Source: Candidatus Methanarcanum hacksteinii (GTDB taxonomy: Archaea; Thermoplasmatota; Thermoplasmata; Methanomassiliicoccales; Methanomethylophilaceae). Taken from it: a stretch of DNA of 64,000 nt. Position 1 is the first letter of the stretch, and each line of letters opens with the position of its first letter. Below the pieces are notes generated by a model. That model was not told where the DNA came from. It saw only the letters and a list, made by a program, of their open reading frames with translations, and ran no database searches. A program made the position numbers and the translations under genes. The DNA is taken from assembly GCA_006954405.1 (NCBI GenBank), contig LVVQ01000001.1, positions 557,161 to 621,160 on the forward strand, given 5' to 3'. This document shows positions 6,393-64,000 of the stretch, piece after piece.

Positions 6393-7016
6393 ATGATGAT
6401 TTCCGAGACGTTCAGATCGATCCAGGGAGAAGGTAAGAGGATTGGTGCCCTAACGTATTTCATAAGGACCGTCGGATGCAATCTCGACTGTTCATGGTGT
6501 GATACGCAATACGCGATGAATGGCGGAGGGGACTTATCGATCGAAGAACTGATCGATCTGGTGAGATCAGATGATGAGATCTGTCTTACAGGCGGAGAGC
6601 CATTATTGCATCGTGAATCAGCGATTCTCATAGAGAAGTTGACAGAGATGGGGAAGACCGTGGTCGTGGAGACCAACGGTTCCGTGGATCTCTCCAACAT
6701 GCCGAACAATGACAATGTGATCTACAGTATGGATATCAAATGCCCATCATCTCACATGGAGGATCGCATGATGTTCTCAAATATCGATCTTCTTCAAGCT
6801 AAGGATCAGGTCAAATTCGTCATCTCGGACGGGAATGATCTGGAGTATGCCATCTCGGTAGTCGAGAGATACAGCCCGAAGTGTGAAGTGATATTCTCTC
6901 CAGTGGGAGGGATGGATATCGAACCGCTCGCTGAGGAGATCATAGCGAGAAGATTGAAGGTAAGGGTCCTCCCCCAATTGCATAAGTTGATATGGGGAAA
7001 TAAGAAGGGTGTTTAA
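6393..7016 (+). CDS. queE: 7-carboxy-7-deazaguanine synthase QueE (radical SAM)
   Basis: MMISETFRSIQGEG...VGCNLDCSWCDT; ATG 6 nt after the queC stop. Confidence 0.8.
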   Translation: MMISETFRSIQGEGKRIGALTYFIRTVGCNLDCSWCDTQYAMNGGGDLSIEELIDLVRSDDEICLTGGEPLLHRESAILIEKLTEMGKTVVVETNGSVDLSNMPNNDNVIYSMDIKCPSSHMEDRMMFSNIDLLQAKDQVKFVISDGNDLEYAISVVERYSPKCEVIFSPVGGMDIEPLAEEIIARRLKVRVLPQLHKLIWGNKKGV

Positions 7017-7354
7017 GCGAACTTCCTGTCGCGTTCCACCCTTCTTTTGAATGCATTCATGCATTCTTCCACAGTGCCTTCCTCATCGAATGATACCTTG
7101 ATTCCGGCTTTGGTCAGTATGTCGTATCCGTGGGAACCGATCCCCCTAGTTATCACTGCATCCACGCCGATGCCAACGATCGCGTTGGCTACCTTCATAC
7201 CTGCGCCTTCCGCATCCATGAACTCATTCTTGACCACTTCGTAATCCAGTGTGTCATAATCCACGATAAGGAAGTATGGTGCGTGACCGAAGTCCTCAGA
7301 TACCTCTGATGACAGGTCATCGCCATCGGATAGCACGCCGACCTTCATATTCAT
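7013..7354 (-). CDS. NifX/NifB-C-like dinitrogenase FeMo-cofactor-binding domain protein
   Basis: 113 aa: KVGVLSDGDDLSSEVSEDFGHAPYFLIVDYDT... Confidence 0.6.
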   Translation of the reverse strand: MNMKVGVLSDGDDLSSEVSEDFGHAPYFLIVDYDTLDYEVVKNEFMDAEGAGMKVANAIVGIGVDAVITRGIGSHGYDILTKAGIKVSFDEEGTVEECMNAFKRRVERDRKFA

Positions 7355-8163
7355 TCCACTGTCTTTATGATCTTGTCCACGATCGTGTTGAATGCTTTCG
7401 CGGATTCGGACTCAGGTGCATCTATGACAATTGGCATGCCCGAATCTCCAGAATCCACGATCTTCGGTTCGATCGGGATCTTTCCAAGGAATTGTATGTT
7501 CATGTTCTTTGCGGTAGCCACTCCACCGCCTGATTTGAAGATCTCAGTGATCTCTCCGCAGTGAGGACATACGAATCCGCTCATGTTCTCAATCAATCCT
7601 ATGATCGGTATCTCTACCTGTGCTGAGAATGTCACTGTCTTCCTGCAATCCATGAGTGCAACATCCTGCGGTGTGGTGACAAGGACGATACCGTCCGCTT
7701 TCTTCATGAGTTGTGCGACAGAGATCGCTTCATCGCCCGTTCCTGGGGGCATATCGACGACAAGGTAGTCCAAGTCTCCCCATTTGACGTCCTCGATGAA
7801 TTGTCTGATGGCTGTTCCTTTCACAGGGCCTCTCCAAACGATTGCCGAGTCCTTGTTCGGAAGGAGGAATTCCATGGATATGACCTTCAATGATGGTGGT
7901 ACGAGGACAGGTATCAATGATTCATCCTGCACGTCGAGTTGCTCATACTCTACGCCGAACATCTTCGGGATGTTGGGGCCGGTGATATCGACATCCATTA
8001 TCCCTGTCTGATAGCCTTTCATGGACAGGGCCATAGCTATATTGGATGACACGGTACTCTTACCGACTCCTCCTTTTCCGCTCATGACGATGATTATGTG
8101 TTTGATCTTTCCAAGACTCTCTTGGAGTTTGAAGTCCTCAGCGTTGATCATTGGTTTGGGCAT
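7351..8163 (-). CDS. Mrp/NBP35 (ApbC) family Fe-S cluster carrier ATPase
   Basis: GKGGVGKST Walker A and a CPHCG motif. The track start at 8187 is TTG; the first ATG (MPKPMINAEDF) is at 8163. Confidence 0.8.
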   Translation of the reverse strand: MPKPMINAEDFKLQESLGKIKHIIIVMSGKGGVGKSTVSSNIAMALSMKGYQTGIMDVDITGPNIPKMFGVEYEQLDVQDESLIPVLVPPSLKVISMEFLLPNKDSAIVWRGPVKGTAIRQFIEDVKWGDLDYLVVDMPPGTGDEAISVAQLMKKADGIVLVTTPQDVALMDCRKTVTFSAQVEIPIIGLIENMSGFVCPHCGEITEIFKSGGGVATAKNMNIQFLGKIPIEPKIVDSGDSGMPIVIDAPESESAKAFNTIVDKIIKTVE

Positions 8164-8247
8164 GATATCAATCCTGTGAAGTTCCAATTAACTTCGTTAA
8201 TGCGGGTAATGGTGAACTCTTTATTAGCCGTTTGCTATATCTCACTC

Positions 8248-8637
8248 ATGCCACTGGGTGATCCGCATGGCGGGAATTTCATATACACCAACGAAGGCCT
8301 ACCTAACGGTATCGCGGCCATATCCATCCCTACGAAGAATGTCGATCGTTCAATCAGGTTCTACGTGGAATTATTGGGATTAAAATTGTTGTCACGCAGT
8401 GATGCTGTCGCGATCCTATCTGTCGGGAAGGATATCATCATCCTCAGGAAGTCGGATGTGGTCGGCGTGGATACAGGCCTTTACCTTAGCACCGAGAGTC
8501 CTTTCGATCTCCACAGGAGATTGATAGATGAGGGCGTGATATTCGTGATCGATCCGAAAAGAGTCGATATCGGATTGATAACAAGATTCAAGGACGATGA
8601 CGGGAACATCATCGGCGCTATAGAGATAAATCAATAA
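8248..8637 (+). CDS. VOC/glyoxalase-family protein
   Basis: IRFYVELLGLKLL...VIFVIDP...DDDGNIIG. Track ORF 8098.. overlaps the mrp start. The ATG at 8248 sits about 25 nt downstream of a TTTATTA box, so it is probably leaderless. Confidence 0.5.
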   Translation: MPLGDPHGGNFIYTNEGLPNGIAAISIPTKNVDRSIRFYVELLGLKLLSRSDAVAILSVGKDIIILRKSDVVGVDTGLYLSTESPFDLHRRLIDEGVIFVIDPKRVDIGLITRFKDDDGNIIGAIEINQ

Positions 8638-8673
8638 CAAAAATAAAGGAGGGGCTTGCGCCCCTTTAATGTT

Positions 8674-10209
8674 TCAATAGAATTTTCCAGCTGTCGCTTC
8701 ATCGAATTCTCTCTTGATTTCCTCGGTAGGCTCTTCGGTCATTCTGCTGACGATGACACCTACGATCAATGAGAGGATGAATGCTGGGAGAAGTTCGTAC
8801 AATCCGCTATCCCATACGAATGTCTGGATTCCGAACATGTTTCCGAACACTCCTCCCGATATGAACAGCGTGTTCCATAAGATGACTGTCAGGAATCCGA
8901 CGATCATGGATGCGAGTGCACCCTGTCTGTTCATGCGCTTCCAGAACAATGCAAGGACCATGACAGGTCCGAATGATGCACCGAATCCGGCCCAAGCGAA
9001 TGAGACGAGGCCCATGATGTTGTTGTTTCCGCTGAGTGCTATCAACACACCGATGACTGCGATGATGGCGACGCATATCCTGGACATCCACATCAGCCTG
9101 TTGTCCTCGATCTTCTTCTCTCCCTTCTTGTTGTAGAGATCGTTGGTTATCGCGGATGCAGCGACCAGTAATTGTGAATCGGCTGTACTCATTATAGCAG
9201 CCAAGATCGCAGCATAGAGGAATCCTGCGATGATCGGTGCACTGTTGCCGAAGAGGTTCGAGACCATCTGAATGAACACATTCTCTGCATCGAAACCTGC
9301 TGGGTTCCCGAGATATACGCGACCGATGACTGCGATGAATCCCACAGATGCGAGTGCAACGACGACCCAAAGTGTACCGATGCGGCGTGCGACCTTCACT
9401 TCCTCAGGGTTCTTAATCGCCATGTACCTGACAAGGATGTGAGGCATACCTACGTATCCAAGACCCCATGCAAGGCATGACAGCAATACGATGGCTGTTA
9501 TCGGTTCTCCGCCTGACCATAAGAGATTGGTACCGTTCTCGACCAAGGAATTGAATGTTGAGGATACTGTATCCCATCCGCCTCCGATCTCTCCGAGTGC
9601 TACCAACGGGACAACGACAACGGCGATGATCATCATTATCGATTGGATGAAGTCGGTCCAACAGACAGCCTTGAATCCGCCCGAAAATGTGTATAACACT
9701 ATGATGAATCCTGTGATGATGACAGCCAACTCATAACCTATCTCGCTGAACACGAGGTTGAAGAGTTTTCCGCCTGCAACGAATCCTGATGCGACATATA
9801 TCGTGAAGAAGAACAGGATGGCGACACCCGTCACGACCCTTATGTATCCCTTATCATCTCTGAAACGGTTGGAGAAGAACACAGGGACCGTAAGTGAATT
9901 GTTACATTTTTCCGAATATTTTCTTAGACGTTTGGCAACGAACAGCCATGCGAGGTAGGAACCTATCGCAAGGCCGATACCGATCCAGATCTGGCCCATT
10001 CCAAAAAGATAGATGGAACCGGGTAGACCCATGAGTAGCCATCCGCTCATGTCTGATGCTTGTGCGGACATCGCTGTCACGTATGGGTTCATATCCCTTC
10101 CGCCGAGAACATAATCGGACATGTTGTGGGTTTTGTTGTAGAAATAGAAGCCCACACCCAATACCACTATGAAGTAGATGATGAAGGCCAATAAGACAAG
10201 CATATCCAT
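8674..10209 (-). CDS. Sodium:solute symporter (SSS family, PutP-like)
   Basis: 511 aa, multi-TM, with an N-terminal YVLGGRDMNPYVTAMSAQASDMSGWLLMGLPG signature. Confidence 0.8.
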   Translation of the reverse strand: MDMLVLLAFIIYFIVVLGVGFYFYNKTHNMSDYVLGGRDMNPYVTAMSAQASDMSGWLLMGLPGSIYLFGMGQIWIGIGLAIGSYLAWLFVAKRLRKYSEKCNNSLTVPVFFSNRFRDDKGYIRVVTGVAILFFFTIYVASGFVAGGKLFNLVFSEIGYELAVIITGFIIVLYTFSGGFKAVCWTDFIQSIMMIIAVVVVPLVALGEIGGGWDTVSSTFNSLVENGTNLLWSGGEPITAIVLLSCLAWGLGYVGMPHILVRYMAIKNPEEVKVARRIGTLWVVVALASVGFIAVIGRVYLGNPAGFDAENVFIQMVSNLFGNSAPIIAGFLYAAILAAIMSTADSQLLVAASAITNDLYNKKGEKKIEDNRLMWMSRICVAIIAVIGVLIALSGNNNIMGLVSFAWAGFGASFGPVMVLALFWKRMNRQGALASMIVGFLTVILWNTLFISGGVFGNMFGIQTFVWDSGLYELLPAFILSLIVGVIVSRMTEEPTEEIKREFDEATAGKFY

Positions 10210-10313
10210 TTGATACTCTCCGTAATACTATGGGAAATGCAATTATAATATAAATGAGGGATGGGGGAAGCTGGACGCTTTTCCGACGTATCGTCGAACG
10301 GCCATCATAACCT

Positions 10314-11486
10314 TTAGGTGATAGAGTCTGTACTCTTCATTCGTTTCACAAGGTATGTGCATGTGAATATCAGAGCGATCATCGTGAATGCACCGCCCAC
10401 ATAACCGATCGAACCGATCGATATCGTATCCGTGGTTATACCTCCGATGATGGATCCCATCGCTATCCCTACATTGAATATCCCGCTGTACATGGACATC
10501 GAGATCGCGGATGCATCCATGGGCGATGTGCGTATGGCCTCACTTTGGAATGATACGTTGAATGCGGTCGCGAAGAATCCCCAGAACATACAGATCATCA
10601 TCATCGTGATAGCGGAATATGCGGATACATTCAGGAGCATGAGGCATACGGATACGCCCAATATCGAACCGATCAGGAATTCGTAACGTATCCTGTCGTA
10701 GTATTTGATGAAGACGAAACTTCCGACTATGCCCGCGAATCCAAAGATCGTAAGACCGACGGTCGTCATCGATTCGGATAGGTTCGCTATTTGTATCATG
10801 AATGGTTCGATGTAGCTGTATCCTGTGTAGTATCCTGTGACGAATATCGCTATGACGACATATATCCCGACGAGGGCTTTGTTCCTGAAGAGTTCCGGAA
10901 GCCTTCTCAATGTGAACGTACCTGGATTCTCCACTCTGGGGAACACTATCACAAGAAGGATCAATGCGAATATCGCCACTATGGCGATGGATATGAATGA
11001 TGCTCTCCATCCCATCGCGAGACCTATCATCCTTCCTATCGGAAGGCCAGCGATCATAGCGATGGATGTTCCCGTGGCCACCATGCTTATTGCCAACCTT
11101 CTGTATTCCATGGTCACGACCCTGACAGCCAACGGAGTGGCTATGGACCAGAATATCGAATGCGAGACTGCCACGCCAAGACGTGCCATGATGAGCATCT
11201 CATAACTGTCGGATATCCCCGACAATATCTGGAATCCTGCGAAAAGGGCTATGCACATCAATAGCATTCTGCGATACTCCATCTTCCTCAGGAGGAGCAT
11301 TATGGGCAAGGATAGTATCGCCACAGCCCAAGCGTAGATCGATATTATCATCCCTGCTTTGGATTCGGTTATCCCCAAGTCCATGGATATGTCCGTAAGC
11401 AACCCGATGGGCATGAATTCGGACATATTGAAAATGAATACGCTGATGGTTATGCCGATCAACGGTAACCAGTTCTTTGGGGACAT
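10314..11486 (-). CDS. MFS transporter
   Basis: 390 aa with about 12 predicted TM helices and an MFS-like repeat structure. Confidence 0.7.
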   Translation of the reverse strand: MSPKNWLPLIGITISVFIFNMSEFMPIGLLTDISMDLGITESKAGMIISIYAWAVAILSLPIMLLLRKMEYRRMLLMCIALFAGFQILSGISDSYEMLIMARLGVAVSHSIFWSIATPLAVRVVTMEYRRLAISMVATGTSIAMIAGLPIGRMIGLAMGWRASFISIAIVAIFALILLVIVFPRVENPGTFTLRRLPELFRNKALVGIYVVIAIFVTGYYTGYSYIEPFMIQIANLSESMTTVGLTIFGFAGIVGSFVFIKYYDRIRYEFLIGSILGVSVCLMLLNVSAYSAITMMMICMFWGFFATAFNVSFQSEAIRTSPMDASAISMSMYSGIFNVGIAMGSIIGGITTDTISIGSIGYVGGAFTMIALIFTCTYLVKRMKSTDSIT

Positions 11487-11599
11487 CGTGGATGCTCGAT
11501 GTACAACTTGTGGATAAAGATTATTACATCACCATATCGAATCGAAGGGATGTGAGGGATGATAGGGCCCTTCGAATCCTCATCGAAGGGCGATGTCAA

Positions 11600-12814
11600 T
11601 CAGTTTCCGACGTTAGCTTTGGTCACAGCTGCATCGATCTCGTTCCTGAGATGATCAGGAAGTCCGTTGATGCCTCCGACGAGGAATCCTCTGACGATCA
11701 TACTGACCGCATCATCCTCCGACAGTCCGCGTGACATAAGATATTCGATCTGATCCCTTGCGATCTTACCGACAGCGGCCTCGTGCGTCATCTCGACATC
11801 CGCTACCGTCGATTCAAGTTCTGGGATGGCATCCGTGCTACCGCCATCGGAGAGCATGATGCTTCTGCATTCGAGGTGTGCTTTCACACCAGGTGCATGA
11901 CCCTCCAGACGACCGCGTGCCTTGATCTTACCTCCGTGAACGATGTTCCTGGAGATGATCTCCGCTGAAGTGTTCGGTGCATTGAGTATGACGCTACCGC
12001 CCATATCGACATCAGAACCCTCGTTCGCGATGCAGATTGTGTTCATCTTGCATGTGGCACCCTCGCCATTGAGATAACAGGCAGGATAGCTCTGCAATGT
12101 GCCTACAGGTTTTAACAGGACGTAGTTGTTGACGTACCTTCCACCCTTCTCCACTATGCATGCGGTCCTGGGACGGACAGCCGTCTGTGTTCCCCAGTTA
12201 TGGATCATGGAGAATACGACAGATCCTCCTTCCTTGACATAGATCTCCGATACACCGACGTGCAATGCGTCATTGACATGGTTGCCTGTGGCGCATCCTG
12301 TGATGATCTCCAACGATGCGTTCTTATCGACGATGACGATATTGTGGAGCGTCTGTATGGATTTCTTGCTGTCTATCATCATGCACGTCTGCACAGGATT
12401 CTTCACCTTGTATCCTGGTTTGACATAGATGAAATAACCATCTCCGTCTTCGAGACATGTCTTCGCAGTGTACTTGTCCTTGTCAGGTTTCACTGCATTC
12501 CAGTAGTAGTCCTTCACCCAATCATACTTGGCGAGGGCCTCTTTCGTGGACATGACTTCCACGCCCTCTTCAGCCTTGTTGTTGCAGTGACTCATGGCGT
12601 TATCGATGAACATGATCGTTCCGTCACGACCTTCCTCATTGGATACGACACCGATATCGTCCATGATCGCACGTGTGGCCTCATCCGCCTTCTCAAGATC
12701 ATCGATCTCATGCGGTTCGAAGGAACCCAATTCATAATGGTCGAGGTCGATATCCGGGCCGTATGCCGCTTTTTTGTCAAGTGCTTCCTTCAATCCATCT
12801 TTACCATTCTGCAT
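11600..12814 (-). CDS. sufB: Fe-S cluster assembly protein SufB/SufD
   Basis: C-terminal SufBD beta-helix region. The start was moved to the ATG for MQNGKDGLKEAL at 12814, which overlaps the sufC stop by 25 nt. Confidence 0.75.
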   Translation of the reverse strand: MQNGKDGLKEALDKKAAYGPDIDLDHYELGSFEPHEIDDLEKADEATRAIMDDIGVVSNEEGRDGTIMFIDNAMSHCNNKAEEGVEVMSTKEALAKYDWVKDYYWNAVKPDKDKYTAKTCLEDGDGYFIYVKPGYKVKNPVQTCMMIDSKKSIQTLHNIVIVDKNASLEIITGCATGNHVNDALHVGVSEIYVKEGGSVVFSMIHNWGTQTAVRPRTACIVEKGGRYVNNYVLLKPVGTLQSYPACYLNGEGATCKMNTICIANEGSDVDMGGSVILNAPNTSAEIISRNIVHGGKIKARGRLEGHAPGVKAHLECRSIMLSDGGSTDAIPELESTVADVEMTHEAAVGKIARDQIEYLMSRGLSEDDAVSMIVRGFLVGGINGLPDHLRNEIDAAVTKANVGN

Positions 12815-13545
12815 GATATGCACTCTCCGTAACCCCTTTCTCTGATGTCCTTGAGTATGTCCATCGGACGACCCGTGCATCTGATGAGCCCTTCCTTGAG
12901 GACGAATGCCTTGTCGGCACCGATGTAGTCGAGGATCTGTCCAGTGTGTGTTATGACAAGTGAGGAGACATGTCTCTTCGAGTTAGAACCGCAATTCTCG
13001 CATTTGCCGTTGTTCTTGGTGTAGAGCAGGTCGTGTACCTTCTTTCCGATGAGATCGATGCTTTCGAGATCGACTCCGGACTCAGGTTCGTCCAGGAGTA
13101 CGAATTCAGGTTCCTGTGCCGTCAGTTGCAGGAGTTCGGATCTTTTGATCTCTCCGCCAGAGAAACCGACGTTCACATCCCTTGCAAGGAAGTTATCCAT
13201 CCTGAAATCGGTCGCATCAGGGACATCCTTTCCATTCGCCGTGGCCTTCACAAGGTCTCCGAGTTTCACTCCTACGACATTCGGTGGTCTTTGCATCATC
13301 ATGCCTATTCCGAGTTTAGCACGCTCATTCACAGGCATATCCGTGATGTCAATCCCTTCGAATATGATCTTTCCACTCGTCACTTTGCATGTTCCGTATC
13401 CCATCACCGCTGCGAGGAGCGTGGATTTGCCTGAACCGTTGGGACCGAAGAGCACACAGGTCTCCCCTTCTCCAACACTCAATGTGACGCCTTTGAGGAT
13501 CTCCCTTCCACCGGCTTCAACGTGAAGATCGACGATGTCTAACAT
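12790..13545 (-). CDS. sufC: Fe-S cluster assembly ATPase SufC
   Basis: GPNGSGKST Walker A, LSGGE signature and the SufC D-loop. Confidence 0.85.
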   Translation of the reverse strand: MLDIVDLHVEAGGREILKGVTLSVGEGETCVLFGPNGSGKSTLLAAVMGYGTCKVTSGKIIFEGIDITDMPVNERAKLGIGMMMQRPPNVVGVKLGDLVKATANGKDVPDATDFRMDNFLARDVNVGFSGGEIKRSELLQLTAQEPEFVLLDEPESGVDLESIDLIGKKVHDLLYTKNNGKCENCGSNSKRHVSSLVITHTGQILDYIGADKAFVLKEGLIRCTGRPMDILKDIRERGYGECISCRMVKMD

Positions 13546-13694
13546 TCTCTCACCTTGGTGGGGTCATACACGTTAATGTAATTAAAATATTCATAACGGC
13601 GTTAACTCACACCTCTCGATAGATGCGTCAAGCAATACCATCTGCGCACATCATTGCCGATTTGTTTATACGGCATCATTCATAACGTGTAGGC

Positions 13695-14267
13695 ATGAAG
13701 GTCGTTGCACTGAACGGGAGTCCACGTCTACTAGGGAACACATCCAATGCATTGAACGTGGTCCTTGATGAACTCAATAAGGAAGGTATCGATACCGAAT
13801 ACATCCAGGTCTATGAGGATCACATGAATCCATGTAACCATTGCAGTTCATGCGAGGTGCGCGGAGACGGGAGATGTGTCGCAGAGGACGACAATATGAA
13901 TCTCTACCTTGACAAGATGAAAGCGGCCGACGGGATAATATTGGCATCCCCAACATACTATGGATCATGTACGGCTCAATTGAAGATATTCCTGGAACGT
14001 GCTGGATTGGCATGCATGTTCGATAAGGATCGCCCACTCAGAGGAAAGGTAGGGGCGGCATTGGTCATCCAAGAACGCAATGGAGGGTACGCCGTCTATT
14101 CAGAATTGGTCAATTGGATGCTCAGCAATGAGATGACAGTAGTCGGTTCCAATCCATTGTGTGTGATCAACGCGAAGAACCCGTTCGACTATGAGAATGA
14201 TGAGAAAGGGATGAAAGCCCTGAAGATGATGTCCAAGAACATCATCTCAGAGCTAGAGAAAAGATGA
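13695..14267 (+). CDS. NADPH-dependent FMN reductase / iron-sulfur flavoprotein-like
   Basis: MKVVALNGSPR...ILASPTYYGS flavodoxin-like fold with a CxxC..C cluster. Confidence 0.6.
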   Translation: MKVVALNGSPRLLGNTSNALNVVLDELNKEGIDTEYIQVYEDHMNPCNHCSSCEVRGDGRCVAEDDNMNLYLDKMKAADGIILASPTYYGSCTAQLKIFLERAGLACMFDKDRPLRGKVGAALVIQERNGGYAVYSELVNWMLSNEMTVVGSNPLCVINAKNPFDYENDEKGMKALKMMSKNIISELEKR

Positions 14268-14269
14268 AC

Positions 14270-15019
14270 TCAGAAGAATAGGAAGCCGCAACCTTCCTTC
14301 ACGGAGACGTTGGCCAAAGATTCCAAACGCTCGAGGGGTCCGGAGTATCTTCTCACATACATCTTCCCTTCCTCTGGAAGAGCGACTTTGAGGATCTCCA
14401 CCTCTTTGAGCAGTTCCTTCGCATCATCGGGTGTGAACTTCCTCTGTTCCTCGGAACTCTTGAGTGCGGATGCGATTATCCTGCAGTCATGTTTCTCCGC
14501 GATCTGAGGGAGAAGGCTGTTATTCGGTCCGAATGCACCTATGCACCCCCTTCCTTTATCCCATGATAACGGACATCTTGCACAGGCATCATTCATCTGA
14601 TCGAAATCGAGAAGGTCCCATCTCGTGAGACGGTCATCGGGTTTGGATAGTCCTATCGCTCTCTCTTTCTTGGAATCATCAAGTCTGTCAAGGAGGACCC
14701 AACCAGTGTACTTCTTTTGTATCTTAGGTCTGAGTTTCTCAAGATCCTCTTCCTTCTTCACCTTCTCGATGTATATGGCATCGGATTCCTCGTTGATCCT
14801 GTTCCTCTTGATGAATTCCTCGAAGTCGGAGAAGATATCCTTGGCATCCTCCAAAGAAACGAATTCATCGATCTCTGCCGCATCCGCGAATTGTGACGGA
14901 TCATCAACGATGACCTTCACGAAATCATTCTTATCACTGCGACAAACCGCATTCTTAGCTTCCATCTCACAGACACCGATGTTTATTCCCATCCAAAAGC
15001 ACCTCTCTGACGATATCAT
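14270..15019 (-). CDS. Hypothetical protein (Cys-containing: CARCPLSWDKGRGC)
   Basis: Track ORF to 15043 begins with GTG; the first ATG is at 15019, about 40 nt downstream of a TTATAACG box. Confidence 0.4.
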   Translation of the reverse strand: MISSERCFWMGINIGVCEMEAKNAVCRSDKNDFVKVIVDDPSQFADAAEIDEFVSLEDAKDIFSDFEEFIKRNRINEESDAIYIEKVKKEEDLEKLRPKIQKKYTGWVLLDRLDDSKKERAIGLSKPDDRLTRWDLLDFDQMNDACARCPLSWDKGRGCIGAFGPNNSLLPQIAEKHDCRIIASALKSSEEQRKFTPDDAKELLKEVEILKVALPEEGKMYVRRYSGPLERLESLANVSVKEGCGFLFF

Positions 15020-15089
15020 TCGCCGATGATATAACGTTATCACCGGTCAATCGCCATCGTTATAATCATTCAGATGTATCTAGAGGCCA

Positions 15090-15581
15090 ATGGCTGACAT
15101 AATGATACGTAAGAGGAAGAGGATGAGAGAGAAGGATATCAAGGCTCTCAAAGAGGATTTGAACACTTTGCTCTCGATCGAGACATTCGCTGATAAGGAT
15201 GTCATAGATATGGCCGAGAGTTCGGATTTCGATGTGATCTTCGTCAACAACTCGATCCTTGCTTTGGTGTATCAGGGAAAACCGTTCCTTACGATCAGAG
15301 GATTGTTGAAATACAGGCCAGAATCGTATTCGGTGACAGTGGATATGGGTGCTGTGCAGTATGTCACGAACGGTGCCGATGTGATGGGCCCAGGTATCGT
15401 GGGTGCGGACGACAGGATATCCGAGGGGGATCTCGTTTGGATAAAGGATTACAAGAACAATGCACCTTTGGCCGTAGGCGTCGCATTGCGTGATGCGGCA
15501 GGACTCAAGGGCAGGCAGAAGGGTAAGGCCATCCATACGATACACTACGTCGGAGACAAACTATGGAAATCCGGTGAGTGA
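15090..15581 (+). CDS. PUA-domain RNA-binding protein
   Basis: C-terminal PUA-like segment (GADVMGPGIVG...GDLVWIKDYKNNAPLAVGVAL). Confidence 0.55.
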   Translation: MADIMIRKRKRMREKDIKALKEDLNTLLSIETFADKDVIDMAESSDFDVIFVNNSILALVYQGKPFLTIRGLLKYRPESYSVTVDMGAVQYVTNGADVMGPGIVGADDRISEGDLVWIKDYKNNAPLAVGVALRDAAGLKGRQKGKAIHTIHYVGDKLWKSGE

Positions 15582-15925
15582 TGATGTTAGGCATCGGAAA
15601 GAGGAAGGATCTCAATATCAAATGCGATGCGATATTCGTGGATCTCTCGAAGGAGGAGATCCCGGGGGATGTCTCCGCGCAAAGGGTCAAAGTGATAAAG
15701 GTACGCAACCCGTCCGATGTCGAAAGATTACCTGGCGTGTTGTTATCGGAATGTGTCCTGATTGTGAATCTGGATGGGTTCAGCGGAGATGTGGATGCAT
15801 CCGTAGAGAGGATGAGGACGATGGCCCGTATGTCGAAGTTTGAGCATCAATCCATCAATCCGATGACCTTCATCTTCATCCCTGAGAAGGTCAAATTGAC
15901 GAATCTTGCCATACGTGAGAAGTGA
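15578..15925 (+). CDS. Hypothetical protein (115 aa)
   Basis: ORF translationally coupled to the PUA gene (ATGA overlap). Confidence 0.35.
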   Translation: MMMLGIGKRKDLNIKCDAIFVDLSKEEIPGDVSAQRVKVIKVRNPSDVERLPGVLLSECVLIVNLDGFSGDVDASVERMRTMARMSKFEHQSINPMTFIFIPEKVKLTNLAIREK

Positions 15926-15929
15926 GAGG

Positions 15930-17258
15930 ATGGCCAATAAGAGCAAGATCGTCCACGATCCCATCCATGGGAGCATAACCATCGCCCCACCTTTCTTGGA
16001 TATATTGGATAGGCATGAGATGCAGAGGATACGCTCGGTCAAACAACTTGGGTTGGGTGATCTGGTATTCCCTGGCGCGAATCACACGAGATTCGAGCAT
16101 TGTCTCGGCGTATACCATTTATCGGGAAGGATGGGCAAGGTCTTGGACTTGGATGACGAGGATGTCACGGCACTCATGGCGGCTGGTCTGCTCCATGATG
16201 TCTGTCACGCACCATTCTCACACACATTGGAGGAATCGATGGAATCCATCACCGGCAGGAATCACATGGATCTCGCCAGGGATCTGATATTAGGCAGGAT
16301 CCCCACATTCATGGAGAGGGACAGGGATATCCTGGATGGTATCGATTCAATATCGGAGATCCTGGAGGATGGCGGGATATCAGCGGACATGGTCTGCGAT
16401 CTCATTGCATATCCGAAATCAACGCTCGGTCCGTTCCATATAGGTGATGAGATGCCTTATTTCTCATCAAGGGACTATATGCACCAGGTCATCCACGGCC
16501 CTGTGGATTCGGATCAGATGGATTATCTTCTTAGAGATGCGCATTACACGGGTGTGAATCTCGGCACCATCGACATGGAGAGGTTGTTGAGTCAGATGGT
16601 GAAATACAACGATCAATTGGTCTTGAAGAGAGGAGGCATAGTCGCGGCAGAGGGACTCGTAGTCTCACGCCTGTTGATGCATTCCTCGGTATATTTCCAT
16701 AAGACCATACGTACGGCCGAGATGATGTTGGTGAAGGCCGTGGATGAGGCGATGGATCAAGGTTGCGACATGTCCGAGATGTATCTCATGACGGATTCCG
16801 ATCTCATCCAGAGGTTGATGTCGTTCGGAGGTAAGGCATCGGACATCACCAGGAATATCATGTTGCGCAGATTGTACAAGAAGGCGTACATTTTGTATTT
16901 CAGTTCGTTGAGCGATGACGATGTCATCGAATTGGCAAGATATGCTTTGGACTCGAATGCGAGGAAGGAATTGGAAGGGCGCATCGCTGCGAGAGCAGGA
17001 GTTGATGTGTCGGATGTCATCGTGGACATGCCGCCAAGATCCGCATTGCTGTCCGAGCAGAAGATCGGTAAGACCGATGTGAACATACTGGACGGCGGAA
17101 GGATCAGGACATTATCATCATTCTCGACCTTGGCTAGATCACTTCAGAGCAGGTCGAATTTCGATTGGGCCCTCATGGTATCCGCACCTGCAGGCATGGA
17201 GGGTGCGGTCGCTAAGGCTGCACGCAATATAATCGGAATAGAGGACGTCACCCTTTGA
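15930..17258 (+). CDS. HD-domain phosphohydrolase (dGTPase/SAMHD1-like, COG1078)
   Basis: HTRFEHCLGV...HDVCHAPFSH HD motif. Start moved to the ATG for MANKSKIVHDPIHG. Confidence 0.7.
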   Translation: MANKSKIVHDPIHGSITIAPPFLDILDRHEMQRIRSVKQLGLGDLVFPGANHTRFEHCLGVYHLSGRMGKVLDLDDEDVTALMAAGLLHDVCHAPFSHTLEESMESITGRNHMDLARDLILGRIPTFMERDRDILDGIDSISEILEDGGISADMVCDLIAYPKSTLGPFHIGDEMPYFSSRDYMHQVIHGPVDSDQMDYLLRDAHYTGVNLGTIDMERLLSQMVKYNDQLVLKRGGIVAAEGLVVSRLLMHSSVYFHKTIRTAEMMLVKAVDEAMDQGCDMSEMYLMTDSDLIQRLMSFGGKASDITRNIMLRRLYKKAYILYFSSLSDDDVIELARYALDSNARKELEGRIAARAGVDVSDVIVDMPPRSALLSEQKIGKTDVNILDGGRIRTLSSFSTLARSLQSRSNFDWALMVSAPAGMEGAVAKAARNIIGIEDVTL

Positions 17259-18699
17259 TGACGCCTATGGGCCTCATCCTGGCGACCTTACCGGTGAGTC
17301 CTGCATCACACACGACGGATACGACCTGACTGACATCCTTGTATGCCTGCGGGGCCTCCTCGACCAATCCCTCGTCGGAGCCGCTTCTCAAGTATATGTC
17401 GTCGCCGGACATGCGCGTCCTTATGGAGTCCGCAGTTATCGAACTGATTGCCTTCTTCCTGGACATGACCCTTCCAGCACCGTGACACGATGACCCGAAG
17501 GTCTCCTTCATAGATCCCGGCCTTCCGACTAATATGTACGTTCCTGTGCACATGTCACCAGGGATTATCACAGGTTGGCCGATGTTGCGATATCTCATCG
17601 TGATCTCAGATCTTCCAGCGGCGAAGGCCCTTGTCGCACCTTTCCTGTGCACCAGTACATCCATGGATTTTCCATCGACATCATGGCGTTCCTTCTTAGC
17701 TATGTTGTGCGCCACATCATACAACACTTCGATGCCCATGCTCTCTGCGGAACAACCCATGATCGTCTCGAAGGATTCTCTGATCCAATGTGTTATCATC
17801 TGACGATTGGCCCATGCGAAGTTCGCTCCGCATGACATCGCTTTGAAGTATCTCCCCCCGATATCGGTATCCAACGGGGCACATGCGAGTTGTCTGTCTG
17901 GAAGGGAGACTTTGTTGTCCCTTATGTATTGCTCCATACTCATGAGATAGTCCGTTGCGATCTGGTGGCCGCAACCTCTCGAACCGCAGTGTACGGTCAC
18001 GGTTATCTGTCCTTTCTCCAATCCGAATGATCTTGCGACATCCTCATCGAATATCTCATCGACCACATCCAATTCCAAGAAGTGGTTGCCTGAACCGAGC
18101 GATCCCAATTGAGGGATCCCCCTCTTCTTCGCTTTATCGCTGACGGTGGTCGGGTCCGCTGTGGCCATGGTCCCGCATTCCTCGGTGACATCCAGGTCCT
18201 TCTCCCATCCGAATCCATTCTCTACTGCCCATCTCGATCCCTCAGAGAGTATGTCGTTTATGACATTCATATCGACCCTGGTGAGTCCTTTCGAACCAAG
18301 GCCTGACGGGACGTTCTTGTAGAGGGCATCTATGAGATCGGACTTCTTACCCTTGATGTCATCCAACGTGAGATTGGTCCTTATGGTACGGACACCGCAA
18401 TTGATGTCGAAACCGATACCGCCAGGGGAGATGGATCCCGAATCAGCATCGACGGCAGCGACACCCCCTATGGGGAATCCGTATCCGAAGTGTATGTCAG
18501 GCATGGCCAAGGATCTGCCGACGATGCCTGGGAGGCATGCGACATTCGCTACCTGTTGCGGAGAATTATCGTCCATGATCGAATCCAACATGCTTTCGTT
18601 CGAGAAGATCACCGCATCGGTTCTCATACAAGGCATATGCTCTTTGGATATCTCCCATCTGTTATCATCGATCTTTCTGAATTTACCGCTCCAAGCCAT
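17248..18699 (-). CDS. rtcB: tRNA-splicing ligase RtcB
   Basis: 483 aa with GFDINCG, GSGNHF and HCGSRGCGHQ metal-site motifs. Confidence 0.9.
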   Translation of the reverse strand: MAWSGKFRKIDDNRWEISKEHMPCMRTDAVIFSNESMLDSIMDDNSPQQVANVACLPGIVGRSLAMPDIHFGYGFPIGGVAAVDADSGSISPGGIGFDINCGVRTIRTNLTLDDIKGKKSDLIDALYKNVPSGLGSKGLTRVDMNVINDILSEGSRWAVENGFGWEKDLDVTEECGTMATADPTTVSDKAKKRGIPQLGSLGSGNHFLELDVVDEIFDEDVARSFGLEKGQITVTVHCGSRGCGHQIATDYLMSMEQYIRDNKVSLPDRQLACAPLDTDIGGRYFKAMSCGANFAWANRQMITHWIRESFETIMGCSAESMGIEVLYDVAHNIAKKERHDVDGKSMDVLVHRKGATRAFAAGRSEITMRYRNIGQPVIIPGDMCTGTYILVGRPGSMKETFGSSCHGAGRVMSRKKAISSITADSIRTRMSGDDIYLRSGSDEGLVEEAPQAYKDVSQVVSVVCDAGLTGKVARMRPIGVIKG

Positions 18700-62300: not shown

Positions 62301-62374
62301 GGACCTGTAGTATAGCTTGGATAGCATTGGAGCCTCCGGAGCTCTCGACCCGGGTTCAAATCCCGGCAGGTCCG
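62301..62374 (+). tRNA. tRNA-Arg (anticodon CCG)
   Basis: Hand-folded. Acceptor GGACCTG/CAGGTCC, anticodon stem GGAGC/GCTCT with loop CTCCGGA, T-arm CCGGG-TTCAAAT-CCCGG, discriminator G, no encoded CCA. The D-arm pairing is imperfect in the manual fold. Confidence 0.75.
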
Positions 62375-62397
62375 CTTCAGATTCAGGTTCGAATCCA
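62358..62397 (+). repeat. Direct repeat copy 1 (tRNA-Arg 3' end plus 23 nt downstream)
   Basis: AAATCCCGGCAGGTCCGCTTCAGATTCAGGTTCGAATCCA; a second copy lies at 63937-63976. Confidence 0.55.
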
Positions 62398-62559
62398 TAT
62401 TGTAGATTAGCCTGTGATTTCTGGATATACAATTTTTCTAGATTTTTCGAAAGTCTTTGTGAATATTGCACAAATCTACGATTTATCAAATTATTATAAA
62501 CTTATTACATAAATCCACGATTAATAAAAGATATATACATGCTATGCCATGTCTAAAAC

Positions 62560-63747
62560 ATGGGGAAGTATCTGGTACGTGAGCAATACCTCAGTAAGAT
62601 TCGTGCGGGTCGTGATGACACAGGGGTTATCAAGGTCATAACGGGAATGAGACGTTGCGGAAAATCAGTCATTCTTGAATTATATGCGGAAGAGCTCAGA
62701 CAGTCCGGCATTTCCGAGGAAGACATAATCTTCATCAATTTCGAGAAGTTTGAGTTCCAGAAGATAAAGACCAGCGAACAGCTGAATGATTATCTTCATC
62801 AGAGGATCGATCCGAACCGCATAATGTACGTTCTGTTGGACGAGATACAGGATGTGAAGGATTGGGAACTATCCCTTTCGGCACTTAATGCAGAGAAGAA
62901 CTGTGATGTTTATGTTACTGGTTCCAACTCAGATATGCTTTCATCACAGCTAGCCACCCGTATATCCGGCCGTCACACGGAGGTCGAGGTATTTCCTTTG
63001 TCCTTCTCTGAATACATGGAGATGCATGGATACACCGATAGGGAGAAGGCATTCATCGAATATCTTGAATGTGGGGGGTTACCGGGAGTAGACCCTTCGA
63101 GGGATCAAAGGTACAGGCAGGACTATCTCCAGGGCGTATACAACACCATCGTCGTCAAGGACGTACTGAGGCACGTCAACGTTAGCGACCCCATGAAGGT
63201 GGAGGCGATTGCGAGGTTCCTATATGCAAATATAGGCAACATCACTAGCAAGTCTTCCGTAGCGGAGGGCACAGGAATCCCCGAGTCCACTGTGGGGATA
63301 TATATGAAGGCCATGGAGGATGCGTTCCTCATACTCCCATGCGACCGTTACGATATGGTAGGAAAGAAATTGTTTTCGACCATCGGGAAATATTATGTCA
63401 CCGATCTGGGGATGAGGAAAGCCGTTCTGAATATCGCCGCAGGCACCGACATAAGCAAACCTTTGGAGAATCTCGTATACGTTGAACTGCTACGCAGAGG
63501 GTATAACGTCAGGGTCGGATGTTACAGGGATTCTGAGGTGGATTTCATCGCCGTGAGATACGACACCATGGAGTACATCCAGGTATGTCAGACTATGATG
63601 TCGGATGACACCAGGAAACGGGAGATCAAACCTCTGACGAGGCCGAAGGACAATTATGTTAAGACTGTCTTGACTCTGGACCGCTTCGGTCTTGGGAACG
63701 AGAACGGGATACTGATTAGGAATGTTTTGGATTGGTTGCTGGAGTAA
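62560..63747 (+). CDS. AAA-family ATPase with DUF4143 C-terminal domain (COG1373-type)
   Basis: Walker A GMRRCGKS and Walker B VLLDEIQ; 395 aa; sits in an AT-rich segment. Confidence 0.7.
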   Translation: MGKYLVREQYLSKIRAGRDDTGVIKVITGMRRCGKSVILELYAEELRQSGISEEDIIFINFEKFEFQKIKTSEQLNDYLHQRIDPNRIMYVLLDEIQDVKDWELSLSALNAEKNCDVYVTGSNSDMLSSQLATRISGRHTEVEVFPLSFSEYMEMHGYTDREKAFIEYLECGGLPGVDPSRDQRYRQDYLQGVYNTIVVKDVLRHVNVSDPMKVEAIARFLYANIGNITSKSSVAEGTGIPESTVGIYMKAMEDAFLILPCDRYDMVGKKLFSTIGKYYVTDLGMRKAVLNIAAGTDISKPLENLVYVELLRRGYNVRVGCYRDSEVDFIAVRYDTMEYIQVCQTMMSDDTRKREIKPLTRPKDNYVKTVLTLDRFGLGNENGILIRNVLDWLLE

Positions 63748-63936
63748 TTTTGATAATTATGGGGTTTCTGTTTTTATGACGTCATCGACAAAGGATATGG
63801 GATCGGCATCAGTTACTGCGTGATTGATCGTTTCTGATGTTAATGATAAATGAAGGCTATTAATCAACGGTACGTACCAATATACTCTACACGATACCAT
63901 GCCGTATCTGATTTTTTCATGTCTGGCCTATGTATA

Positions 63937-63976
63937 GGGCGGATCCCGGCGGGTCCGCATCAGATTCGAGTTCGAA
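63937..63976 (+). repeat. Direct repeat copy 2 (partial tRNA-Arg 3' end plus downstream motif)
   Basis: GGATCCCGGCGGGTCCGCATCAGATTCGAGTTCGAATCCC; about 33 of 40 positions identical to copy 1. Confidence 0.55.
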
Positions 63977-64000
63977 TCCCACGTTGACATTTAAATAGTA

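Follow-up and report, generated by a model that had tools for sequence, protein, structure and literature searches.

The window analysed here, a stretch of 64,000 nt from Candidatus Methanarcanum hacksteinii (Methanomethylophilaceae; contig LVVQ01000001.1, positions 557,161 to 621,160 of the forward strand), ends in a ribosomal-protein cluster (RpoE', Spt4, DUF359, S24e, S27ae, with H+-PPase further upstream) that is followed by the gene for tRNA-Arg(CCG). The last 15-16 nt of this tRNA gene fall within a direct repeat of 37 nt, the two copies of which (62360-62396 and 63943-63979, found by a repeat search) agree at 33 positions (89%) with a spacing of 1583 nt; the recurrence of the tRNA 3' end some 1.58 kb away, with 33 of 40 positions identical over 40 nt, had been pointed out in an initial annotation of the window, and it is present as described. 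A degenerate version of the 37-mer, allowing up to three mismatches, matches in only these two places of the 64 kb, where shuffled sequences lead to an expectation of 0.00. The sole long open reading frame (ORF) between the copies (62560-63747) encodes a DUF4143 ATPase, again as had been noted before. The features of the region, all on the forward strand, are the following:

62301-62375, forward strand: tRNA-Arg(CCG) gene, anchor of the array described below (attB-like); called by ARAGORN, with Rfam tRNA matches in relatives.
62360-62396, forward strand: repeat copy 1, consisting of the tRNA 3' end and 21 nt downstream of it (ATCCCGGCAGGTCCGCTTCAGATTCAGGTTCGAATCC); in occupied strains, what lies to the right of TCCCGGC comes from the cassette.
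62361-62367, forward strand: TCCCGGC on the tRNA side, the putative 7-nt crossover (overlap) segment, proposed from the sequence.
62368-63950, forward strand: inserted cassette of 1583 bp, present or absent among strains of the species; its boundaries can be placed anywhere in the shared ATCCCGGC.
62376-62396, forward strand: type-A left end of the cassette (CTTCAGATTCAGGTTCGAATCC), containing the T-arm-like GGTTCGAATCC.
62472-62538, forward strand: AT-rich region, the putative promoter of the ATPase gene, as suggested by its position and its conservation upstream of homologues elsewhere.
62560-63747, forward strand: cargo gene for an ATPase of 395 aa with AAA_14 and DUF4143 domains (Pfam, PADLOC, AlphaFold model).
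63856-63943, forward strand: right-end module, with palindrome GGTACGTACC (63869-63878), a T-run, the motif CATGTCTGGCC (63918-63928) and GCGGA (63939-63943).
63943-63979, forward strand: repeat copy 2, GCGGA-TCCCGGC-GGGTCCGC and the type-A left end that belongs to the following cassette (DUF6290/ParE, starting past the window end).

The presence or absence of the segment between the two copies, precise to the repeat, is directly observed within the species. Other strains were sampled through the S27ae protein of the window, which yielded 22 contigs (sequences are designated here by L numbers); six of them (L150, L151 and four similar ones) are without the ATPase cassette, and there the tRNA gene is followed directly by a gene pair for a DUF6290 antitoxin and a ParE toxin. 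Carriers of the cassette are L152-L159, L001-L010 and the window. In the empty strains the tRNA body is joined to TCCCGGCGGGTCCGCATCAGATTCGAG, the repeat in its copy-2 form (...TCCCGGC-G-GGTCCGC-A-TCAGATTC-GA-G...); the tRNA gene of occupied strains has the copy-1 version (A, T and AG at these positions), the differences to the right of TCCCGGC (A/G, T/A and AG/GA) thus being linked to the cassette. The strains compared differ by no more than 122 single-nucleotide polymorphisms per 10.3 kb of flanking sequence (at most 1.2%), and the tRNA is called in occupied and empty strains alike. Because the empty strains lack exactly the 1583 bp between the copies, the segment appears to be mobile DNA that was inserted into tRNA-Arg(CCG) at its 3' end. 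This agrees with the attL/attR-type integration into a tRNA 3' end proposed in the initial annotation, and the empty site that it recommended looking for in related strains is found in L150 and L151, with the junction inside the repeat. The tRNA itself is altered by the cassette: empty strains have a G at acceptor position 67, resulting in a U6-G67 wobble (L150, position 10357), and occupied strains have an A supplied by the cassette (62368 of the window), resulting in a U6-A67 pair.

The sequence past the window end was read over 10 kb on long contigs of the same species that carry the exact ATPase protein. Copy 2 is also the left boundary of the DUF6290/ParE cassette, after which come a third and more decayed copy of the repeat (L152 shows that a proper site was formerly present there), a second DUF4143 ATPase gene, the product of which is 30% identical to the first, and the backbone with nitroreductase, GNAT, AcnX and FEN1. 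Copies 2 and 3 have approximately 45 nt of element-side sequence in common, upstream of the tRNA-like part. Neither an integrase nor viral genes are present in these 10 kb, which argues against a larger element extending past position 64000; nor can the segment be regarded as a decayed lone element, both of which had been considered from the window alone, as it is the tRNA-proximal unit of an integrase-less cassette array that recurs in relatives.

In related Methanomethylophilaceae, tRNA-Arg(CCG) follows S24e/S27ae in 17 of 18 loci (ARAGORN). Six cassette sites were counted in L162, five in L029, three each in L160, L106 and L147, two in L045, and nine plus a decayed one in L193; in eight loci, 19 site-bounded units of 0.68-3.35 kb were counted. 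The junction AAGCGGT-TCCCGGC-GGGTCCGC(T/C) is invariant, its conserved form being RGCGGW-TCCCGGC-GGGTCCGC; across genomes the non-tRNA copies are preceded by a related module of approximately 70 nt, the right-end modules falling into several classes, and are followed by a left end belonging to either of two classes. The toxin-antitoxin (TA) cassettes of the window species, L045, L106 and L193 all begin with the type-A left end, as do different cassettes in L029, L162 and L193. The junction forms an imperfect palindrome with a small predicted hairpin, and a larger predicted hairpin lies 30-60 nt upstream; the tRNA likeness of the cassette sites ends at the border of T-loop and T-stem. The right-end module of the window can be aligned with those of other cassettes and is 72-83% identical to three modules of L193. 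The T-arm-like GGTTCGAATCC, to which attention had been drawn before, is present in both copies of the repeat and, judged from its sequence, does not form a T arm; it is a conserved part of one left-end class. In L045 this piece (CGGGTTCGAATCCC) has 14 nt identical to the T arm of the relatives' tRNA-Arg, and in the window (62376-62396 and 63959-63979), L045 and L106 it represents a partial second tRNA-Arg fragment, located 8-9 nt past the core.

The cargo in the eight loci includes DUF4143 ATPases, DUF6290/ParE and Phd/YoeB pairs, Fic, AAA-ATPase_like with PDDEXK_9, Metallophos and peptidase S15 proteins, as well as, judged from ORF translations alone, one unit of four genes whose products would be a regulator of the LysR type, a flavodoxin, an acetyltransferase and an aldo-keto reductase. 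Cassettes bring along AT-rich upstream regions of their own, and some of the genes lie on the opposite strand (the first cassette of L017/L162, peptidase S15). That the architecture is conserved and that the same cassettes occur at different positions and in different species is directly observed. In a rumen species, strains with identical S27ae have two entirely different arrays between the tRNA and GNAT/AcnX; a Metallophos cassette, unchanged at both ends, is the second unit of L160 and the fourth of L162; and the TA cassette is the unit closest to the tRNA in L150, L045 and L194, and the second one in L106 and the window species. The latter cassette is, end to end, 86-87% identical between the window species and three other lineages, whereas the adjacent housekeeping DNA is 71.5% identical, which indicates that this cassette has been transferred between species. 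Empty or nearly empty sites exist in other species as well: in two of them an ORF of 73-74 aa is all that separates the tRNA from AcnX, and in a third this place is taken by one hydrolase gene. Decayed sites were sought behind the tRNA of the sister species L011 and L013-L016, and none were found.

One array lies away from the tRNA gene. It was found through a ParE homologue on L193, a contig of 247 kb, at positions 6760-18518, between CobN/SLFN_AlbA_2 and the gene for GMP synthase, and no tRNA was called in the 20 kb. Nine perfect or nearly perfect sites and one decayed terminal site define about ten units, which contain five DUF4143 ATPases, two DUF6290/ParE pairs, MNT/HEPN, Fic and Phd/YoeB. 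The terminal site consists of a normal right-end module and TCCGGC, right after which similarity stops and unrelated DNA follows. As the tRNA and the cassette sites are alike from TCCCGGC onward, and similarity at the terminal site of L193 ends after TCCGGC, the crossover appears to be confined to these 7 nt; an array at a target other than a tRNA, furthermore, is more readily explained by a site-specific enzyme than by homologous recombination.

The reading we favour, with moderate confidence, is that 62368-63950 is a non-autonomous cassette which was put into the 3' end of tRNA-Arg(CCG) by a site-specific recombinase acting in trans. Such a cassette would consist of a left end that takes the place of the final 8 nt of the tRNA body, of the discriminator base and of the downstream flank; an AT-rich promoter of its own; one or a few cargo genes; and a right-end module of approximately 70 nt with a hairpin, ending in RGCGGW. 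Insertion would proceed by conservative site-specific recombination, with crossover in the 7-nt TCCCGGC common to the tRNA and the cassette site RGCGGW-TCCCGGC-GGGTCCGCY, an imperfect palindrome. Newcomers would enter beside the tRNA and push older cassettes outward so that an array is built up, which in the window species would read tRNA, PDC-S01-type ATPase, DUF6290-ParE, second ATPase. As none was found in the cassettes, the arrays or their flanks, the recombinase would have to act in trans; it would probably be a tyrosine recombinase. We further infer that a circular intermediate exists and that the event was an insertion, not a deletion, as well as the exact points of cleavage and a defence activity of the cargo. 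As the latter consists mostly of TA pairs and candidate antiviral ATPases, the locus would constitute a variable stockpile of defence and addiction genes.

The ATPase encoded in the window segment has AAA_14 (E 1.7e-34) and DUF4143 (E 4.2e-16) domains and matches the PADLOC model PDLC04787 (PDC-S01) over its full length (residues 3-395; E 1.5e-137). PDC-S01 is a candidate defence family, so that an antiviral role of the protein is suggested by its sequence; to our knowledge no activity of this family has been tested elsewhere. Its sequence has no relative with a solved structure; the AlphaFold model is confident (pLDDT 87.5), and the nearest folds are Orc1/Cdc6 and the STAND NTPases (CED-4, Apaf-1, MalT, Avs5), a resemblance at the level of domains only (TM at most 0.48). 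Ahead of the gene lie two direct repeats of the 15-nt AAATCYACGATTWAT (62472-62486 and 62511-62525, 39 nt apart; chance expectation 0.02), which, from their position and conservation, are probably an operator, and a TATA-like AAAAGATATATAC approximately 25-30 nt upstream of the ATG. The pair, or a single copy of AAATCYACGATTWAT, also precedes close ATPase homologues at unrelated loci (L186, L182-L184, L187, L162). The drop in GC content between the repeat copies, which had been part of the initial case for foreign DNA, is real but modest: the inserted segment has 44.4% GC, compared with 49.0% for the window (standard deviation 1.8; 1.7th percentile), and the drop sits in the two intergenic parts of the cassette (27.7% and 39%), the ATPase ORF being compositionally native (47.9% GC, 60% at third codon positions).

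Two occurrences of ATPase homologues outside the arrays may be mentioned here. A homologue 82% identical to that of the window is located approximately 350 nt downstream of tRNA-Thr(CGT) amid housekeeping genes (L182, 9572-11188; L187, 9658-11188), with neither a flanking repeat nor a core site. Another, 89% identical, is encoded on L186 (9800-10987), a contig the other genes of which look bacterial (neighbours are SpoIIE, STAS, a C39-peptidase ABC exporter and radical SAM/SPASM proteins); this could be a transfer between domains or an unusual archaeal region.

Several observations weigh against a cassette inserted by a trans-acting enzyme. Foremost, no recombinase has been found and the central actor is hypothetical, the search having covered the arrays, the 10-kb flanks and the ORFs tested, with whole genomes outside it. 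Likewise, no free circular cassette or replicon bearing an attP site was present in IMG/VR or in phage and plasmid collections, and a loose pattern of the site, GCGGWTCCCGGCRGGYCC, occurs in metagenomes, among the matches listed mostly on unrelated GC-rich contigs from soil; of those listed, only L045, L076, L087, L106 and L147 are relevant to the arrays. The larger predicted hairpin has weak covariation (double changes in two of 18 pairs, both in one divergent sequence), and the right-end module of the window folds no better than shuffled sequences (z -0.74). The second ATPase has no right-end site, and its absence from L152 (around 12690) is not bounded by sites. The polymorphism within the species could also be the result of deletion rather than insertion. 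Finally, the ATPase gene and its promoter are combined with other cassette ends in L162 and L193, and also lie outside arrays, which indicates that genes and ends re-assort by an additional process, the gene and promoter seemingly travelling separately from the ends. A deletion of 1.1 kb in L005 (approximately 13297-13326), which takes the 3' end of the second ATPase gene and the nitroreductase gene, has no core sites at its boundaries.

The search for a recombinase was conducted in several ways. In none of the arrays or their 10-kb flanks was there a match to Phage_integrase or another recombinase family of Pfam, and neither the cargo proteins nor the ORFs without assignment nor the ten ORFs of the window of no obvious housekeeping identity contain a recombinase domain of Pfam; NCBIfam, PADLOC and PHROGs gave no recombinase among the unassigned ORFs, a regular expression for box II of tyrosine recombinases had no match in any of the related loci, and no gene for an IntI-type tyrosine recombinase lies beside the tRNA anchor. 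Thus, that no recognisable recombinase is encoded nearby is a plain observation. IMG/VR scanned with the 28-nt repeat and with AGCGGTTCCCGGCGGGYCC returned no hits, and the full junction (module, site and left end) had no match by blastn in phage and plasmid collections. The junction region was also considered as part of a split, SSV-type integrase coding sequence and rejected, as the ORFs spanning the junctions are short, the indels in the modules are not multiples of three, and palindromes are present.

The alternative that survives best, although we consider it unlikely, is that ordinary plasmids or proviruses encoding integrases accreted serially at tRNA-Arg and then lost the integrase and most other genes. 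Tandem integration and loss of the integrase after integration are documented for archaeal elements (PMC8371274), and such a history would fit the more pronounced decay of distal sites (copy 3), the second ATPase without a right-hand site, and the variable genes which sister species hold after the tRNA without recognisable sites. However, not one of the 19 site-bounded units in the eight loci, nor of the approximately ten in L193, contains an integrase, replication or structural gene; the units measure just 0.7-3.3 kb and usually hold a single gene or operon; the ends are well conserved, yet the interiors would have to have undergone nearly complete deletion many times independently; and identical, complete small units recur across arrays and species. 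A parent element with these ends was not found in IMG/VR or in phage or plasmid collections, and a related autonomous integrase element using the same att site was found neither there nor in about 60 related loci.

It is less probable still that no dedicated recombinase is involved and that the module is a terminator or a tRNA-like 3'-processing signal, between repeats of which homologous or microhomology-driven recombination occurs. The modules do lie at the 3' ends of genes, with predicted hairpins ahead of T-runs, and close with a palindrome that resembles a minihelix and is composed of tRNA acceptor and T-stem sequence; strains without the first ATPase could, in this case, be deletion products. 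Against this, the identity at the junction spans just 15-22 nt and the orientation is constant; in the loci examined the sites are restricted to arrays, copy 2 being the sole other site-like match in the 64 kb; the hybrid site of the empty strains was resolved in the leftmost 8 nt of the 37-nt repeat; and the target in L193 has only TCCGGC in common with the sites, an outcome which homologous recombination would not yield.

A further proposal, which appears very improbable, makes the DUF4143 ATPase itself (an AAA+ NTPase with a C-terminal PD-(D/E)XK-like domain) the mobility enzyme, homing its own gene to the vicinity of tRNA genes. DUF4143 ATPases are indeed over-represented (two of three units in the window species, three of six in L162, five in L193), and close homologues preceded by the same promoter repeats are inserted singly elsewhere, one of them 350 nt downstream of a tRNA-Thr gene. 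Many cassettes, though, lack such a gene altogether (TA, Fic, Metallophos, peptidase and multi-gene units), the solitary copies have neither flanking core sites nor repeats, and the family to which the ATPase belongs is a candidate defence family. Its predicted fold is Orc1/Cdc6- or STAND-like, with no recombinase or transposase fold seen in the structure comparison, for which reason, along with the solitary copies, the ATPase was rejected as the recombinase; the usual lysine of the (D/E)xK motif is not evident in the clade, which, the alignment being small, is weak evidence. The last possibility, namely that copy 2 is a second tRNA, a pseudogene or a chance match, or that the arrangement belongs to the conserved core genome (the second tRNA and the conserved arrangement had been raised in the initial annotation itself), has only the likeness to the tRNA 3' end in its favour and can practically be dismissed, as no tRNA is called at copy 2 (ARAGORN) or at equivalent copies in related loci (Rfam), chance expectation is 0.00, and the arrangement is variable among strains of the species and missing in other species.

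Compared with known systems, the trans-mobilized cassettes favoured here would, by analogy, be functionally closest to integron cassettes or att-accreting cis-mobilisable elements (CIMEs). As in integrons, there is an ordered array of small, mostly one-gene units in the same orientation, each ended by a structured site; the anchor is fixed, with older units farther out, the cassettes carry no recombinase, and identical ones are found in different arrays. The predominance of TA and candidate defence genes is reminiscent of sedentary chromosomal integrons. However, the anchor is a tRNA 3' end, not attI, with no IntI-type integrase beside it; the sites are palindromic, preceded by predicted hairpins, and without the GTTRRRY and RYYYAAC boxes of attC; while integron cassettes are mostly promoterless, co-oriented and dependent on a common Pc, the ones described here have their own promoters and genes in either orientation; and the host is an archaeon. 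None of the hallmarks of integrons (IntI, attC boxes, promoterless and co-oriented cassettes) was therefore found.

CIMEs, known together with their tandem accretion from ICESt1 and ICESt3 of Streptococcus, have att sites at their boundaries and no recombination genes, mobilization being presumed to depend on the integrase of a related element. The units at tRNA-Arg(CCG) resemble them in being att-bounded, without recombination genes and in tandem at one attachment site; they differ in that no related autonomous element was found in the collections and loci searched, in that they are far smaller and more numerous, and in that their ends fall into several classes with predicted hairpins.

Archaeal elements are known to integrate into tRNA 3' ends, to do so in tandem, and to lose their integrases (PMC8371274). 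Elements of the SSV and pNOB8 types have the tRNA 3' target, the flanking direct repeat and the regeneration of the tRNA from element DNA in common with the cassettes, in which, in contrast, no integrase or fragment of one and no replication or virion genes are found and which measure 0.7-3.3 kb as compared with 5-40 kb. Of the marks of a tRNA-targeted element, the flanking repeat, the regenerated tRNA and the empty site are thus present at this locus, and an integrase of its own is not. IMEX (Xer/dif) elements are likewise integrase-less units in tandem at one chromosomal site, and make use of a recombinase encoded by the host; archaeal dif has been described as AT-rich with an 11-6-11 organization (PMC2958812), from which the GC-rich, tRNA-derived site with short arms around TCCCGGC is set apart by its architecture as described. 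Many tiny, complete, integrase-less units with conserved structured ends that are shuffled among arrays depart from the known archaeal picture, and no description of such tRNA-anchored cassette arrays was found in the literature searched.

More tentatively, and with slightly less than even confidence, we propose that Methanomethylophilaceae possess an integron-like mode of gene capture which evolved independently of bacterial integrons and in which a dedicated, trans-acting recombinase moves promoter-bearing, single-gene cassettes in, out and between positions by way of a palindromic, tRNA-derived site with hairpin modules as accessories, the tRNA-Arg(CCG) 3' end being the primary dock and secondary sites being used occasionally, so that TA and antiviral genes are exchanged between species. 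Integron cassette arrays provide bacteria with rapid adaptation and storage of defence genes, and the same logic would then operate in host-associated methanogenic archaea. If true, a hitherto unknown recombinase and a novel recombination site are indicated; the site, of approximately 22 bp with a 7-nt crossover, might be usable as a genetic tool for methanogens that are hard to engineer. The locus would also be a defined hot spot for cataloguing archaeal defence and addiction genes, including the abundant uncharacterised COG1373/DUF4143 (PDC-S01) ATPases, and a strain-level marker for Methanomethylophilaceae from the human gut and rumen.

A few ORFs encountered on the way deserve mention. That of 344 aa at 1717-2751 of the window (reverse strand) has no match in Pfam, NCBIfam or PADLOC. 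In L014, a relative with 98% identical S24e, an ORF of 239 aa (12035-12754) lies after a truncated DUF4143 ATPase next to tRNA-Arg and contains an HUH-like motif (PHFHNLVYG ... AAYLYTH) and may encode a Rep-like protein of the rolling-circle type; it has no match in Pfam, NCBIfam or PHROGs and no credible one in the PDB (only ThreeFoil, E 0.39). Two ORFs of L160 without a Pfam match (336 and 315 aa) resemble membrane proteins when inspected by eye, and an ORF of 493 aa in L087 (438-1919, reverse strand), in a cassette past a core site with a type-B left end, has, also by eye only, the look of a DDE transposase.

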